In this document: positions 1 through 6,233 of the stretch, one piece after another
How positions within the stretch are numbered: position 1 is the stretch's first letter
Layout of the letters: each line of letters begins with the position of its first letter
Sequence record: MK562504.1
Origin: Enterobacteria phage CHB7
Length of the DNA: 64,000 nucleotides
Reading direction: 5' to 3' (one strand)
Made by a program: the position numbers and the translations under genes
Notes under the pieces: generated by a model
What the model was told of the DNA's origin: nothing
Seen by the model: only the letters and a program-made list of their open reading frames with translations
The model's database searches: none

Positions 1-2367
1 TTAATCGAAAGCCTGAGTTCCTTCAGGGATGCACTTAACATCAAATCCTAAGAACTGACCAACTTCAACAGGACTTACTTTATTCCAGTCTAAGTTAGAA
101 AGCAAGAAGTTTTCTGCTTTACGTGCTGTGAAGTACACACTCAGTTTCTGCTTAATACGTTCTCTGGCATTGTAGATTGCAGAGTGTACCTTACTCTTAG
201 CTCTTGTCAAGCGTTGTAAGTCATGCAGAACACTTGTAACGTCCTTATAAGCAATCGGTGAAGCAACATAAGCCAGCTTACCAAACATTGCTTCTACAGC
301 CTCTTCATTCCCTTCCAAGAAGATACGTTTGCTGTAATCAGCACTGTAGACATAACCTCTTGAGCACTTCTTATCACCAAACTGGAACGTTCTGGCAATA
401 ACACCTTTATCAGTGATATCACAGTTTGAACTACACCATTCACGAGTTACAAAACGGTTAAACTCAATCCAGTGAATATCAGTGATAGAGTCTTTGAAGA
501 CTTGCTGATTCACTTCTAACCAGTCTTCAGGAATCTTCTTCCAGTTTGCTTTACGGAACACATAAACCGACTGTCCAGTTAAGCGTGCCATTACCTTTGC
601 AGCAGACTCTGGAGTGCAACTAAAAATTCCACCAAGGACTTCATCACTCTGTGCTTTGATATAGTACTGAGGTTCTTCAATATCATCAAAGTTCTCTTTT
701 ACTTCTGTATAAGATACACCGTGTTCATGTACAGAAGCTTTGTAGAGTTTTACAACACCACGAGTAACAGTACGCTTCACATAGTGATGCTCTTTGTCAG
801 ACATTTTAACAATCGTCAACATACTCTTATCAATCATGTGGAGATTAATAAACTGGTCTAACTCTTGCTCATCAGAGAACACATAAACAATACCGTTGTA
901 GCGACGGAAGTTCGGTTCTTCATTTTCACGGTCACGACAAGCGCCACGGATAATCTGATTGCGTCCTACAGTCTTTTCAGTACCATTTTTGTTTCGACGG
1001 TCATTGATAAGGAACAAATAGTTAGACATTTTGTTCTTACTCATTGCACCGAAGATACTGAAGTTCGCACCTTCCTGAGTGTACATCGCTGAAGTTGCAC
1101 GAATCTTATTTTCCAGTTGACTATACTTGAAGTAAGCAACAGGCTCATACAGATTCCCAATAACAGGAATGTGATTACCGCTCTTATCAACAAGCAAAGT
1201 TCCATTGTCATCAGTGGCAAACTTTGGAGTGCCATCTGCGTTACTCAACTGTCCTTGACGAATCTTTAAAAGTTTCTGCTCAAGGTCTGCTAAGCTCTGA
1301 CCATTCCACTCAAGACGGGTAAACACATGCTGGAAGATTTCACGAGAGTTAGCTCGTAAGTCTGCATAAGCCTGTGCAGCGTCTGCCAAGGTTGGTTCGT
1401 TGTCAATACGTTTTACTACATCTTCGACAATCGTCGCAGTAATCTTTTTAACTGCATCTGTAATTGCTTTCTTAGTGGTCTCATTCATCTGCAATGCTTC
1501 ACGAGACGCAGCGATAGCCACTGAACCAATCGGCATGTAGATGTTAACAAGGTCTACAGCATTACGGAAGAATGTAGGAAGAACACTGGTGAACTCTGCA
1601 CCAAGTAAATCTCCTAAGTCAACCGGATAAGCAATATTACCCATAACAACGTTGAAATTTGTCTGGTTATTACTTGAACGCCAGTTCTCTTTATACTTCA
1701 TCGCATCGTAAACACCATCTTCACGAACAATGGTAGTCATCTCGCTAAGGATATCACGGTATTCTACGTTGCATTCTGGTTTCAGTTTGAAGTAAGAGAA
1801 GACATTACTTGCTTCTTCATGAAACTTCTGGATACGATGGTCAGCTACTGCAACACGAACTGCTAAACCATTTGGTTCGGTAGTCGGGTTTGTCGTCAGT
1901 TTAGTAACTTGAGGAATACCATTCTCAAGGTATACAGAGTACTTGTTAACTACGCCGTCTACGTAGCTGGACACGGTGAATGACTGTGCAATTGCAAAAG
2001 GTGACTTTGAACCGATACCCATAGCACCGATGTAGTCGTTTGAGTCATTCTTAGTAGAAGCTCCATAGTTCAGGTACAGAGACATAACCTTCTCATGGGT
2101 CAGGCCAGTACCGAAGTCACGAACTTCAAAGTATGGGTCGAAACGAGTTGGCAGGTGTACACGGAATGGTACATCCTCTTTTCCAGCTTCTTTGTGAGTA
2201 TCTACAGCGTTACAAGACAACTCACGAATTACAGCACGTTCTTTAAAAGTGTAAACACCTGAACTTAACAGGCTGAACATTTCAGGAGTCATCGTAATAG
2301 ATGCCTGAGAAGTTTCTAATGAAGATGAACTCTTAATCACCTCTGCGTGGTCATTTACCATGCGCAT
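1..2367 (-). CDS. rIIA: rIIA-like GHKL (Bergerat-fold) ATPase, 788 aa
   Basis: Translation carries an N-box (ERAVIRELSCNAVD), G1 box (VRDFGTGLT) and G2 box (GAMGIGSKS) typical of HATPase_c domains; TAA stop at 1-3. Assignment to rIIA is by analogy with T4-like rIIA, from memory. Confidence 0.5.
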   Translation of the reverse strand: MRMVNDHAEVIKSSSSLETSQASITMTPEMFSLLSSGVYTFKERAVIRELSCNAVDTHKEAGKEDVPFRVHLPTRFDPYFEVRDFGTGLTHEKVMSLYLNYGASTKNDSNDYIGAMGIGSKSPFAIAQSFTVSSYVDGVVNKYSVYLENGIPQVTKLTTNPTTEPNGLAVRVAVADHRIQKFHEEASNVFSYFKLKPECNVEYRDILSEMTTIVREDGVYDAMKYKENWRSSNNQTNFNVVMGNIAYPVDLGDLLGAEFTSVLPTFFRNAVDLVNIYMPIGSVAIAASREALQMNETTKKAITDAVKKITATIVEDVVKRIDNEPTLADAAQAYADLRANSREIFQHVFTRLEWNGQSLADLEQKLLKIRQGQLSNADGTPKFATDDNGTLLVDKSGNHIPVIGNLYEPVAYFKYSQLENKIRATSAMYTQEGANFSIFGAMSKNKMSNYLFLINDRRNKNGTEKTVGRNQIIRGACRDRENEEPNFRRYNGIVYVFSDEQELDQFINLHMIDKSMLTIVKMSDKEHHYVKRTVTRGVVKLYKASVHEHGVSYTEVKENFDDIEEPQYYIKAQSDEVLGGIFSCTPESAAKVMARLTGQSVYVFRKANWKKIPEDWLEVNQQVFKDSITDIHWIEFNRFVTREWCSSNCDITDKGVIARTFQFGDKKCSRGYVYSADYSKRIFLEGNEEAVEAMFGKLAYVASPIAYKDVTSVLHDLQRLTRAKSKVHSAIYNARERIKQKLSVYFTARKAENFLLSNLDWNKVSPVEVGQFLGFDVKCIPEGTQAFD

Positions 2368-2430
2368 AATAACTTTCCTCTTGGGTTGTTTGATGCATAG
2401 ACTTTAAAGAACTCTGCACTGATTGTCAAA

Positions 2431-2607
2431 TTATTTCTTAAATCTTTTACCAGAACCTTCACAGAAAGGGCAACAGCCACTTCTGGTAAACCCATGACCA
2501 TCACAGTGTTCACAGCGTTCTGTTTCTACAAAGTATCTGACAATGACAAGAACAAATATTGCTATAATCCCCGTCGATAGGAGTAACTCTACCCAATAAC
2601 CTTGCAT
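2431..2607 (-). CDS. small membrane protein with DnaJ-type zinc finger (58 aa, not in ORF track)
   Basis: Hand translation gives MQGYWVELLLSTGIIAIFVLVIVRYFVETERCEHCDGHGFTRSGCCPFCEGSGKRFKK: one hydrophobic helix then two CxxCxGxG motifs. Overlaps the next ORF by 19 nt. Confidence 0.3.
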   Translation of the reverse strand: MQGYWVELLLSTGIIAIFVLVIVRYFVETERCEHCDGHGFTRSGCCPFCEGSGKRFKK

Positions 2608-2924
2608 AACTTCTCTCCAACATGTTTGTACAGTATGAAACTACGGTCATGAACAATACTTGAGGCAACTGCAAAGTTCTCTTCCAGTATTGCTTTGTTC
2701 GGATTATAGAATCCGTCTAAGAATTGGTCAAGTGCTAATTGGTGATTTTGTGGAAGACCTTTAACATAAATCTTCATAGAAAGCGTGGCAACCACTTCAC
2801 CTTGAAGTTCATCTCGTGCTGCTACCAAGATTTGGTTAATGAACTTGTGACCATCTTCAGGACGTTTAATGTCATCCCAATTCTCTTCCAAGACCATATT
2901 GATATTCATCTGTTTGATTTTCAT
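2589..2924 (-). CDS. hypothetical protein (111 aa)
   Basis: Intact ORF co-oriented with neighbours and tightly packed. Confidence 0.4.
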   Translation of the reverse strand: MKIKQMNINMVLEENWDDIKRPEDGHKFINQILVAARDELQGEVVATLSMKIYVKGLPQNHQLALDQFLDGFYNPNKAILEENFAVASSIVHDRSFILYKHVGEKLCKVIG

Positions 2925-3136
2925 AGAACCTCCACAATAAATTTTTTAAACTTTTTACGCAGCTTTCTGATTTGCTTTTTTGTAGGTTTTACACAAAATT
3001 GATAACTCTCAATAATAGCTTGTCTATCATCAGGCATGTCGGATTCTGTGAACCAAAGCACCCAATAAGATTCTTGATACCCTCCGAAACAACTTTGACT
3101 ACCAGCAGTGAAGTATAAATCTGTGTTGAACTCCAT
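2921..3136 (-). CDS. hypothetical protein (71 aa)
   Basis: ORF with 4-nt overlap to the downstream gene; sits just after a terminator hairpin. Confidence 0.35.
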   Translation of the reverse strand: MEFNTDLYFTAGSQSCFGGYQESYWVLWFTESDMPDDRQAIIESYQFCVKPTKKQIRKLRKKFKKFIVEVL

Positions 3137-3150
3137 AGTCTTCTCCAGAA

Positions 3151-3176
3151 ATTAAAAAGGCTCCCGTAGGAGCCTC
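3151..3176 (-). terminator. intrinsic terminator
   Basis: Hairpin AGGCTCC-CGTA-GGAGCCT followed by a T-run on the minus strand, directly downstream of the NadV-like gene. Confidence 0.5.
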
Positions 3177-3189
3177 TTATAATAATTAT

Positions 3190-5016
3190 TTAAAGCTGTC
3201 TGTCAATAACATTTCGTACATCACGAAGGTTAACGTAGCCATATGGCTGAGAGTCGCAGAATACCAGCTTCAGAGCACACTGAGGGTTATCCAGTACACT
3301 TTCAAACTCTGCAAAACCAAAGCCATCTACAGCTTCCAGCTTATCACCATCCCACATAGGGACTACACCACCAAAAGCCGACTTCTTAAGACCACTGTCA
3401 GTTTTAGGGTCTTTTGCCAGCATGATTTCTTCACCATCCATCTGTGCAAGAGTTGCTTTAACAGCAAATGCAAAGGTATCACGAGTCATGTACTGGTAAG
3501 TATATGAACCAACACCAAAGACAACGTTAGAACTTGCAAAGCCCTTTTCAGCAAGACGGCTAAGAATCTCTTCAGCACGTTCCAAAGTGATAGAATCACC
3601 GTAGATTAAACCAATGTGTTCATCAAGAACTTTGTAGCCTTTAGAGTTTACAGCGCCACCAAAGATGTTGTACAGAGTCTTGATAGCACCATCAATTTCT
3701 GCTGTCAGCATTGGTTTAACAACAACTTGACCAGTCTTGTAAGTATCTTTCAGGTTAACTGTGTCAGCAACGTTAAAGTCTTCTGCATCAACAACCAACT
3801 CATAACCTTCAGAGATTAGCCAAGCAGAGAAGCCATAGCCCATATCTGACATGTTACAATTAAGGATTGCATCAAGCAGATAAGTATTGTTAGGAGAAAT
3901 GGTTGACATGTGTTTGTAATACATACTCTTAGCATTTTCCCATTCAATTGCACGATAGCCAGTAACAATGTGTACAGGGTCACCGGAATCTGGACGGATT
4001 ACCAGTTTACCATCACGTTTCAGGATTACTTCACGGAGTTCTGGAAGAATCTCTGTAACTGTACGCCAGAAGTTGTAAGTATCGGACACAACACTTGTAA
4101 TACCAGTTGGGTAAACATCTACCAGCAGGTGTTCAAATGTTTTAACCTCACCACGCCAGCGTTTAGCATCCAGCAAACTATCAGACTGCATGATGTACTG
4201 TGAGTGGATATCATCTTCTGTCAGGTCTTTCATATTCCATGAAATGTTTGCACACATAACGGAATGTTCAGTTGCTGGAACAGAGTTACCAATATCACTT
4301 ACAGTCATAAACTGACCATATGCACGTTTAGCAGTATACACAGCAGGGAAGCTATCAGTTCCTTTAAAGCTGGTCAAGTGGCCTACAGTATTGAAAGCAT
4401 CATCGGTAAAGCCAGACATACCACGCATTGCAAAGTCATGACACTGCCAAGGAAGATGGAAGTCATTGTCACAGGTCTTGTCAGCCCAAGATTTACAGAT
4501 ACGTTTGTAGTGCAGTGCAATAGTTGCAATGGTACAAGCTTTCCAGATTTCAGCAGAGAAAGCATCTTCCAGATAACCAGCTACCCAATGGAAACCTTCA
4601 ACGGTATTTTTGAAGATAATCATTGGAACACGCATAGGAACAACTGTACCTTCTTCAACAGAGTACACTGCAACTGGCAGATAGCCTAAGTCGTGAAGTT
4701 CTTCCCAATGATGACGCTTGATAGCATCTGCACCAAGAACACCATTCATGATTTCTAAGATTTCATCAACAGCTTCTTTCTTATCACGTTCGAAGAAAGT
4801 TGCGTTCCAATGGTCTACTAAGTAATCTTTAACGAAACGTTGGATACCAAAAGCCACTACACCGTCAATTGCTAAAGGGCTGTTAAACCATTTATCACTA
4901 CGTGGTGTCAGGTTGAACATCAAGTATTCTGTTGCACTAGGATACTGGTAAACATGACCAGATTTGTAAGCATCTGCATTTAAACCTGCTGGTACTGCAT
5001 AAAGTGATTTAGTCAT
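3190..5016 (-). CDS. nadV: nicotinamide phosphoribosyltransferase family protein (NadV/Namat-like), 608 aa with C-terminal extension
   Basis: N-terminus (NADAYKSGHVYQYP) and overall layout match the NAMPT family; it is about 110 aa longer than a typical NadV. Confidence 0.8.
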   Translation of the reverse strand: MTKSLYAVPAGLNADAYKSGHVYQYPSATEYLMFNLTPRSDKWFNSPLAIDGVVAFGIQRFVKDYLVDHWNATFFERDKKEAVDEILEIMNGVLGADAIKRHHWEELHDLGYLPVAVYSVEEGTVVPMRVPMIIFKNTVEGFHWVAGYLEDAFSAEIWKACTIATIALHYKRICKSWADKTCDNDFHLPWQCHDFAMRGMSGFTDDAFNTVGHLTSFKGTDSFPAVYTAKRAYGQFMTVSDIGNSVPATEHSVMCANISWNMKDLTEDDIHSQYIMQSDSLLDAKRWRGEVKTFEHLLVDVYPTGITSVVSDTYNFWRTVTEILPELREVILKRDGKLVIRPDSGDPVHIVTGYRAIEWENAKSMYYKHMSTISPNNTYLLDAILNCNMSDMGYGFSAWLISEGYELVVDAEDFNVADTVNLKDTYKTGQVVVKPMLTAEIDGAIKTLYNIFGGAVNSKGYKVLDEHIGLIYGDSITLERAEEILSRLAEKGFASSNVVFGVGSYTYQYMTRDTFAFAVKATLAQMDGEEIMLAKDPKTDSGLKKSAFGGVVPMWDGDKLEAVDGFGFAEFESVLDNPQCALKLVFCDSQPYGYVNLRDVRNVIDRQL

Positions 5017-5061: not shown

Positions 5062-5943
5062 TCAATCAAGGTTTGCTACAGTAACTTGACCATAATGTGT
5101 TAAGCCACGGTCTTTAGCTTCCCCTAAAGAGTTTGTAGTGTAGATGTGGTCAATGCCATTGTCAAGAAGGTTTTCAACACCTTTAGAGAAGATACCATGT
5201 GTTACATAAAGCTCAACACGTTTTGCACCTGCTTCACGTAGGTGTTTAGCTGCCTCTACGAAGGTTCGACCACCATCACAGATATCATCAAGAATCATGA
5301 CGGTTTTATCGGTCAAATCAACATCGTCAAGGATTCGCATACCAGTGATTTCTCCAGTCTTAAGATTTCGCACCTTAGACATTGTGATATATGGTTTATC
5401 CACCTCTTTAGCAGTCTCTGCAATCTTCTTAGAAGCACCTGCATCTGGGGCTACTAAGTAATCAATTAGAGGGTCATTTGCATAGTGGACTGCAATCTCC
5501 TTTTGAGGAATACTCTGGAAGCAGTTAAACAGGTTATCTGGTACATAGCTGTGAGGGTCAACTGCACAGACTGCGCCAAACCCCATTGCATTAATCTGTT
5601 TAGCAAAAACCTTTAAAGCTGCTGCGTCACCTTTAAACATGTGACGGTCATATCGTGCATTTGGTAAGTAGTAAAATATGACAGTCTTTAAAGCATAATC
5701 ATGAGGAACTAAATCGTCAATTGCTTCTTTAGCCAGTGCCACAGCAAACAGTGTGTCTTTGTCATAACCCTTTACAATCATAACCACATTGTTAATAGAT
5801 GATGCTGCATAAGCAGTAAAATCAACAAGCTCTTGTGAAAAGTGGCCACCAATCTCACCAGAAGGGAATTGGATGATGTTAAACTCTTCTTCATGAGTTC
5901 CTTTAGTCGGTGAATGAATTGTGACACGGATAGATGTTTTCAT
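5062..5943 (-). CDS. ribose-phosphate pyrophosphokinase family protein (Prs/Adps-like)
   Basis: Phosphoribosyltransferase PRPP-binding motif (VMILDDICDGGRTF) and Prs-like architecture. Start is probably the internal ATG at 5943 (MKTSIRV); the track ORF runs to 5958. Confidence 0.75.
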   Translation of the reverse strand: MKTSIRVTIHSPTKGTHEEEFNIIQFPSGEIGGHFSQELVDFTAYAASSINNVVMIVKGYDKDTLFAVALAKEAIDDLVPHDYALKTVIFYYLPNARYDRHMFKGDAAALKVFAKQINAMGFGAVCAVDPHSYVPDNLFNCFQSIPQKEIAVHYANDPLIDYLVAPDAGASKKIAETAKEVDKPYITMSKVRNLKTGEITGMRILDDVDLTDKTVMILDDICDGGRTFVEAAKHLREAGAKRVELYVTHGIFSKGVENLLDNGIDHIYTTNSLGEAKDRGLTHYGQVTVANLD

Positions 5944-5954
5944 AGTTTTCTCTC

Positions 5955-6233
5955 TCAATCAAAAGTTACGTTTGTTACTGCCATTGCAGATTTGCATTTT
6001 ACAGGGTCTACAACGTGGTAAAGTACACTACAGTTACCTGTGCTGTCTGGTACAGGCTTTACCCATTGCTGCTTTATAGTTGGCTCTCCTAAGTCTTTGT
6101 AAGAACCATCTGTAAAGTTGTTTACCATCTCAAGTGCAATTGGTTCTGGAACATGACCACGTATCATGTACATCTCACAACCATTACCTCCTTCACTGAC
6201 TAATGGTAAAATCTCCCACTTTTCTTTAGCCAT
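5955..6233 (-). CDS. hypothetical protein (about 92 aa)
   Basis: ORF whose ATG (MAKEKW) overlaps the upstream stop by 8 nt, suggesting translational coupling. Confidence 0.4.
   Translation of the reverse strand: MAKEKWEILPLVSEGGNGCEMYMIRGHVPEPIALEMVNNFTDGSYKDLGEPTIKQQWVKPVPDSTGNCSVLYHVVDPVKCKSAMAVTNVTFD

Follow-up and report, generated by a model that had tools for sequence, protein, structure and literature searches.

A small membrane protein gene with a putative zinc knuckle, conserved among Felix O1-like phages, occurs as a divergent allele upstream of rIIA in Enterobacteria phage CHB7

The 64,000-nucleotide (nt) stretch of Enterobacteria phage CHB7 analyzed here (MK562504.1; referred to in full as the window) contains an open reading frame (ORF) for a protein of 58 amino acids (aa) on the minus strand, at positions 2431..2607 including the TAA stop codon. 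Its translation from ATG to TAA is MQGYWVELLLSTGIIAIFVLVIVRYFVETERCEHCDGHGFTRSGCCPFCEGSGKRFKK. An earlier note on this DNA had proposed an ORF at 2431–2607 with the motifs CEHCDGHG and CPFCEGSG, located between a rIIA-like gene and a nicotinamide adenine dinucleotide (NAD) module. We confirmed the frame, both motifs, and the location between rIIA (1–2367, minus strand) and NAMPT (3190–5016, minus strand), and assigned the ORF to the minus strand, which had not been stated. The product is a small membrane protein with a putative zinc knuckle that belongs to PHROG 3931, and the gene is an ortholog of Felix O1 ORF131. A Shine–Dalgarno-like GGAGAG (2613..2618, minus strand) lies 5 nt before the ATG, where the upstream sequence ends in TGTTGGAGAGAAGTT-ATG. 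This site is also kept in EP1, EcSzw-2, and Silverhawkium, and a ribosome-binding site is annotated at the equivalent position in the Mijalis record.

The 58 residues are laid out as an acidic N-terminal tail free of Lys and Arg, one strong transmembrane (TM) helix, the motif pair CEHCDGHG-x6-CPFCEGSG, and a basic tail. The TM helix was assigned to codons 5–27 (2527..2595, minus strand) based on hydropathy and structure prediction. The Kyte–Doolittle mean reached its maximum, 2.54, over residues 5–23, and an AlphaFold2 model from a 12-sequence alignment (predicted local distance difference test score of 76) showed a helix at residues 4–28 followed by short hairpins, in agreement with the single-pass hydrophobic helix noted earlier. 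The first repeat, C32-E-H-C35-D-G-H-G, is encoded at 2491..2514, and the second, C46-P-F-C49-E-G-S-G, at 2449..2472 (both minus strand). C32, C35, G37, and G39 of the first repeat and C46, C49, G51, and G53 of the second are invariant in the family alignment. An extra Cys45 stands just before the second repeat, a position occupied by Pro in P0006, P0052, and P0104. The basic C-terminal tail KRFKK (2434..2448, minus strand) begins with K54, which is nearly invariant. The phiSUSP1 ortholog (L007, 1501–1680) reads CDECEGSD, with Asp in place of the final Gly of the first repeat; no other break was seen in the otherwise invariant glycines.

The 58-aa ORF is a genuine, conserved accessory gene of Felix O1-like phages and is under purifying selection. 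Six-frame translation of the window yielded only two CxxCxGxG matches, both in this ORF; shuffling the window 200 times gave on average 0.26 matches per window and never more than two. The PHROG 3931 profile matched ORF residues 1–58 over profile positions 1–59 of 59 (expectation value, E = 2.6e-26), and 316 phage records gave a tblastn match to the protein. The frame, the four ligand cysteines, and the glycines were intact in 41 further loci drawn from annotated phage records, encoding contigs, and IMG/VR. Every Ounavirinae locus read kept the frame and the cysteines, the conservation on which the earlier note had staked its proposal. The ratio of nonsynonymous to synonymous substitution rates (dN/dS) was 0–0.1 within allele groups, as seen in the orthologs of EcSzw-2 and EP1 (dS 0.15, dN 0), FO1a and SapYZU01 (dS 0.41, dN 0.02), and Mijalis and SUSP1 (dS 0.42, dN 0.04). 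Furthermore, the frame was kept across four Ounavirinae genera and Krischvirus at 40–60% divergence.

The gene is already known and usually annotated, but uncharacterized; the version in the window is a divergent new allele. The description of the ORF as unannotated applies to EP1, the closest record, but most relatives do annotate it. Annotated orthologs include EcSzw2_30, Silverhawkium gp2, and FO1a gp126, labeled as hypothetical or membrane proteins, together with CPT_Mijalis001 (“putative cytoplasmic membrane protein”) and Felix O1 ORF131 (NP_945023, “hypothetical membrane protein”). In EcSzw-2, Silverhawkium, Mijalis, SUSP1, SapYZU01, Felix O1, and phiEa21-4, the PHROG 3931 gene lies after the NAD-salvage genes and is the final small gene ahead of rIIA. 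Felix O1 ORF131, Silverhawkium gp2, and the Mijalis protein match the window protein in length, in the slot directly upstream of rIIA, in a 19-nt overlap with the preceding gene, and in the invariant Cys and Gly residues. Nevertheless, the window protein is only 43–57% identical to every known PHROG 3931 member; the DNA around its gene, by contrast, reaches 100% identity with Suspvirus relatives. The Felixounavirus protein is strongly conserved, with at least 90% identity in 215 of the 257 records. Four Felixounavirus-type entries of 63 aa (P0010, P0014, P0015, and P0016) carry a frameshift after the TM helix or within the first repeat, which swaps the knuckle for an unrelated tail ending in VKCLISNLTVN or VKCLISNLTAN; such entries may reflect pseudogenes or sequencing errors.

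More distant members retain the same architecture and motifs. Erwinia phage phiEa21-4 gp117 (54 aa) is a diverged member (hhalign 97%, E = 3e-11) and is also the last gene before rIIA; the family therefore sits in one and the same slot in each of the four Ounavirinae genera checked. In Krischvirus (RB49-like T4 relatives), a relative of 52–58 aa (tblastn E of about 1e-3) follows and overlaps nrdC. The N-terminal tails of phiEa21-4 gp117 and of the Krischvirus protein, a 52-aa “putative membrane protein”, are shorter than and different from that of the window protein. The upstream neighbors also differ from the 111-aa gene of other Ounavirinae, being NrdC in Krischvirus and an unrelated 113-aa gene in phiEa21-4. 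In contigs from Krischvirus or other T4-like phages (L006, 2236–2653; L011, 4742–5177; L012, 255–699), the knuckle gene and the 3' end of the gene before it share 11 nt. This upstream gene is a NrdC thioredoxin/glutaredoxin, by annotation or match, in L006 and L011, and a 91-aa gene without a family match in L012. The T4-like neighborhood is completely unlike that in Ounavirinae. Additionally, five metagenomic proteins of 91–126 aa (P0051, P0062, P0116, P0125, and P0041) carry four CxxCxGxG repeats after an N-terminal signal peptide or anchor, and may be exported or membrane-bound forms of the same motif.

The family profile matched the Cys-rich domain of Escherichia coli DnaJ (1exk, E = 7e-10), human DNAJA3 (2ctt, E = 8.5e-7), and, more weakly than these two, Bacillus anti-TRAP. 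The C-terminal 34 residues aligned without gaps to anti-TRAP (TCPNCNGSGREEPEPCPKCLGKG) and to DnaJ repeats 3–4, with an equal spacer of 6 residues, bearing out the DnaJ-type spacing recognized earlier. With its paired repeats, conserved Cys and Gly residues, and profile similarity to zinc-binding domains, the protein belongs, at the motif level, to the DnaJ-type CxxCxGxG zinc-knuckle superfamily. Searched as a single sequence, the window protein produced no Pfam or NCBIfam match reaching its cutoff, and no J domain (HPD) was matched among the Pfam and NCBIfam models. DnaJ models covered residues 21–55 only (18.6 bits against a cutoff of 377 bits), and PF00684 scored 17.8 bits against a cutoff of 32.7 bits over profile positions 35–65 only, with two repeats present out of the four that define this domain. 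The anti-TRAP model NF058604 gave E = 0.25 (11.5 bits against a cutoff of 65 bits), and PF15777 (anti-TRAP) was matched by four of 12 family members, with a best E of 0.044. Because the scores fall below the cutoffs, no J domain was found, and only two repeats are present, the phage protein is neither a DnaJ nor an anti-TRAP family member.

The likenesses and differences are specific. The protein shares with DnaJ/Hsp40 (1exk; PF00684) the repeat motif and the spacer of repeats 3–4, but DnaJ contains four repeats, two interleaved zinc centers, and J and substrate-binding domains, whereas the phage protein combines two repeats with a membrane anchor and lacks a J domain. Anti-TRAP (RtpA of Bacillus, PDB 2bx9/3lcz) is soluble, binds TRAP, and possesses a C-terminal helix for trimer/dodecamer assembly; in contrast, the phage protein has an N-terminal TM helix and ends 5 residues past the second repeat. 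We know of no TRAP system in the enterobacterial hosts named in the related records. In the anti-TRAP structure, two repeats form one Zn(Cys)4 site. By analogy, the simplest arrangement for the phage protein would be a single Zn(Cys)4 site with C32, C35, C46, and C49 as putative ligands and zinc as the most likely metal. The two zinc fingers originally proposed are thus present as two CxxCxGxG repeats, but only one metal site is possible. The single site and the absence of a J domain consequently leave the suggested link to host chaperones without specific support, and the influence on envelope functions suggested alongside it is likewise speculative. A further architectural counterpart is Arabidopsis FIP (At5g02160), which binds the membrane protease FtsH5 and comprises one membrane anchor followed by a C-terminal two-CXXCXGXG domain on the stromal, cytoplasm-equivalent side (PMC5915565). 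FIP and the plant DnaJ-like zinc-finger membrane proteins are eukaryotic, plastid-targeted, and longer, and the resemblance drawn here is an architectural one.

The surrounding region of the window is 91–93% identical to Suspvirus phages (Ounavirinae, Felix O1-like) such as the Escherichia phages EP1, EcSzw-2, and mistaenkt, and ~74–80% identical to Mooglevirus phages. The order along the minus strand is a phosphoribosyl pyrophosphate synthetase-like gene (5062–5958), NAMPT, a 71-aa DUF7279 gene (2921–3136; PF23945, E = 5e-13), a 111-aa gene of PHROG 4262 (2589–2924), to which the family assigns no function, the 58-aa ORF, and rIIA. The start of the 58-aa ORF and the end of the upstream 111-aa gene overlap by 19 nt of dual coding sequence (2589..2607, minus strand), and the identical overlap was found in EcSzw-2, Silverhawkium, Mijalis, FO1a, SUSP1, and SapYZU01. 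The two genes are predicted from this arrangement to be translationally coupled. The DUF7279 gene is present in the window, EP1, the Mooglevirus phages, and L009, and is cleanly missing, as a ~210 bp deletion, from EcSzw-2, mistaenkt, and SUSP2, which are otherwise nearly identical. The N-terminal 160 residues of the rIIA-like protein gave a near-threshold match to a GHKL ATPase fold (PF13589 HATPase_c_3, E = 8.6e-5, 23 against 25 bits).

A sigma-70-like promoter match, TTGACA-17-TAAAGT (2401..2429, minus strand; 10/12 matches), starts 1 nt past the ORF stop and upstream of rIIA, and its TTGACA also occurs in EP1, EcSzw-2, and Silverhawkium. This position, right after the stop codon and before rIIA, would place the 58-aa ORF at the end of its transcription unit. 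At the end of NAMPT, another promoter-like site (3179–3206, minus strand; 11/12 sigma-70-like matches) is directly followed by a terminator-like hairpin located after NAMPT (3155–3178, minus strand), with a 10 bp stem and then a T-run. A terminator is annotated at the place equivalent to 3155–3206 in Mijalis and phiEa21-4, and this segment is probably the start of a three-gene unit comprising the 71-aa, 111-aa, and 58-aa genes. The transcription-unit picture is tentative, since the promoter/terminator scan as a whole showed no enrichment over shuffles.

The part of the ORF that does not overlap the 111-aa gene (2431..2588, minus strand) forms a sharply bounded variable cassette, with the 19-nt overlap at its 5' edge. 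The cassette is 54–56% identical in nucleotides to the closest relatives; in 60-nt bins, identity to EP1 and EcSzw-2 is 52–57% (72% at the 3' edge, dropping inwards to 52%), whereas both flanks are 95–100% identical. The drop is confined between the end of the overlap, which is itself 98–100% identical, and the stop codon. Compared with EcSzw-2, the small protein is 43% identical, the 111-aa protein 100%, and the 5' part of rIIA ~98%. The window, EcSzw-2, L009, and L046, all Suspvirus-like, have flanks of 90–100% identity, and each carries a different allele, with 38–82% identity per 40-nt bin in all pairwise comparisons of the four. The alleles of EcSzw-2 and L046 have their first 48 nt in common and differ beyond that point, a pattern that indicates an intragenic breakpoint. 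Among 561 locus pairs, upstream identity of at least 93% combined with ORF-body identity below 80% was seen only in pairs involving the window.

Between alleles, synonymous sites are saturated (dS 1.3–2) and indels are present. The guanine–cytosine content of the cassette is the same as that of the flanks, and no template repeat, copy, or paralog of the cassette was detected in the 64 kb window. Given the saturated sites, the missing template repeat, and the matching base composition, the window version is an old allele imported by recombination and not a locally mutated copy. Targeted hypermutation of the diversity-generating retroelement type was considered and rejected on the lack of a template copy or paralog in the window, the saturation, and the indels. 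Exact look-ups and DNA-pattern scans covering the protein collection, IMG/VR, and metagenome contigs did not turn up the allele. Searched alone against the 5.8-billion-protein collection, the window sequence had no match, and an alignment of relatives was needed as the query.

We propose that the protein has a membrane-tethered, protein-binding role. The short acidic N-tail would lie in the periplasm, one helix would span the inner membrane, and the 31-residue C-terminal part would be cytoplasmic. There, Cys32, Cys35, Cys46, and Cys49 would hold one metal ion, most likely zinc, in a DnaJ/anti-TRAP-type knuckle. The target would be a host or phage protein on the cytoplasmic side of the inner membrane, which the knuckle would bind and modulate, with its specificity set by the variable residues that surround the invariant Cys and Gly scaffold. 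This role is favored because the closest analogs of known action, anti-TRAP with TRAP and FIP with FtsH5, each bind another protein. We regard this reading as a whole as about as likely as not. The literature searched contained no function data, no characterized phage CxxCxGxG membrane protein, and no Ounavirinae expression data. The sole published statement found, from 2010, names five small membrane proteins, Felix O1 gp131 among them, any one of which “could be the holin” (PMC3185647).

The cassette-like exchange of alleles is the one feature that hints at an interaction with the host. In its most specific form, the proposal would make the membrane-tethered knuckle an arms-race factor that inhibits or redirects a host inner-membrane machine, for example FtsH, or a membrane-bound defense component, with its specificity-determining surface exchanged between phages as a cassette. 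Such a history would account for the presence of four unrelated alleles in Suspvirus genomes that are nearly identical elsewhere, but we regard this particular version as speculative and rather unlikely.

A partner could instead be encoded by the phage itself. The knuckle might serve as a membrane anchor or assembly factor that holds either the rIIA/rIIB complex or the co-translated 111-aa protein at the inner membrane. The 19-nt overlap, present in all enterobacterial Ounavirinae read and pointing to translational coupling, is consistent with this role. Additionally, the 111-aa gene and the Felix O1-type small protein are each found in 257 phage records with identical organism counts, and rIIA is always the next gene. 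However, the small protein has changed against EcSzw-2 without co-variation in the 111-aa protein or in the 5' part of rIIA, and the upstream gene is unrelated in phiEa21-4 and is NrdC in Krischvirus. The case for the 111-aa protein as an obligate partner is thus weakened, and we consider an anchoring role doubtful.

The protein-binding proposal assumes a bitopic inner-membrane protein with an N-out/C-in topology. This orientation was predicted from the positive-inside rule, since Lys and Arg are absent before the helix and present after it. The window protein has none before the helix and seven after, and all 14 distinct phage members lack Lys and Arg before the helix and have two to seven after it, with an N-tail that is acidic in most. 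The predicted orientation would place the knuckle in the reducing cytoplasm, where zinc–thiolate sites are stable. A lipoprotein or a cleavable signal peptide was rejected, as the N-terminal region carries no positive charge and no conserved lipobox. In the opposite, N-in/C-out orientation, the Cys-rich part would form a knob in the periplasm, held by disulfide bonds and with a role in superinfection exclusion or envelope modification. The T4 small membrane proteins Imm, Sp, and RI act from the periplasmic side, and the four-repeat bacterial relatives have signal-peptide-like N-termini, both of which speak for such a knob. Nevertheless, the charge distribution in the 14 phage members, with Lys or Arg directly after the helix, together with the missing signal-peptide n-region and the lysine-rich C-terminal tail, makes the inverted orientation unlikely.

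The published mention of gp131 raises a different function, in which the protein is a holin or another lysis-timing membrane protein that accumulates and triggers or delays lysis together with the adjacent rIIA/rIIB “lysis inhibition” genes. The small size, single TM helix, and charged C-terminus (KRFKK) agree with a holin, although these properties are generic and not diagnostic, and the gene lies immediately upstream of rIIA in four Ounavirinae genera. The inclusion of gp131 among the five candidates in the Felix O1 genome paper was based solely on size and TM prediction (PMC3185647). The gene resides in the nucleotide-metabolism (NAD-salvage)/rII block and not near the endolysin; position alone is not decisive, as lysis genes of Felix O1-like phages are scattered over the genome (PMC4319497). 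The Krischvirus homolog, which follows nrdC, is also distant from the lysis genes. The Moogle announcement reports a putative holin while the Moogle ortholog is labeled “hypothetical protein”, which suggests that the putative holin is another gene. To our knowledge, holins do not feature a Cys4 zinc knuckle. Taken together, a lysis function seems improbable.

We rate as equally poor the prospects of a redox-active or iron-binding Cys center, that is, a membrane-bound thiol–disulfide protein possibly serviced by a phage thioredoxin. The overlap of the homolog with the 3' end of the NrdC gene in Krischvirus and other T4-like contigs is in line with this idea, and redox cycling or iron binding by the two CxxC pairs is conceivable in principle. 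Plant DnaJ-like zinc-finger relatives are reported to have disulfide-isomerase activity. However, no thioredoxin-fold neighbor is present in Ounavirinae: the 111-aa protein is not similar to NrdC (E = 0.22), and a low-confidence model of it looks like the C-terminal domain of IF3 and not like a thioredoxin. The CxxCxGxG spacing itself is the zinc type of DnaJ and anti-TRAP. Finally, a chance ORF without a protein product has a negligible likelihood: the frame is short, left unannotated in EP1, and missing as an exact sequence from the protein collection, but it unites two rare motifs 6 codons apart with a ribosome-binding site and purifying selection, and its preservation in four Ounavirinae genera and Krischvirus refutes the chance origin as far as comparative evidence reaches.

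Felix O1-like phages are in wide use for Salmonella typing and biocontrol, and hundreds of them carry this gene under no other label than “hypothetical” or “membrane protein”. A better annotation would name a zinc-knuckle protein of the DnaJ/anti-TRAP type with a single site, anchored in the membrane and with its C-terminus predicted to be cytoplasmic. Replacement of its allele as a cassette makes the gene a candidate host-interaction determinant. A host target, if one were identified, would add a minimal membrane-tethered zinc knuckle of ~58 aa to the phage takeover proteins.
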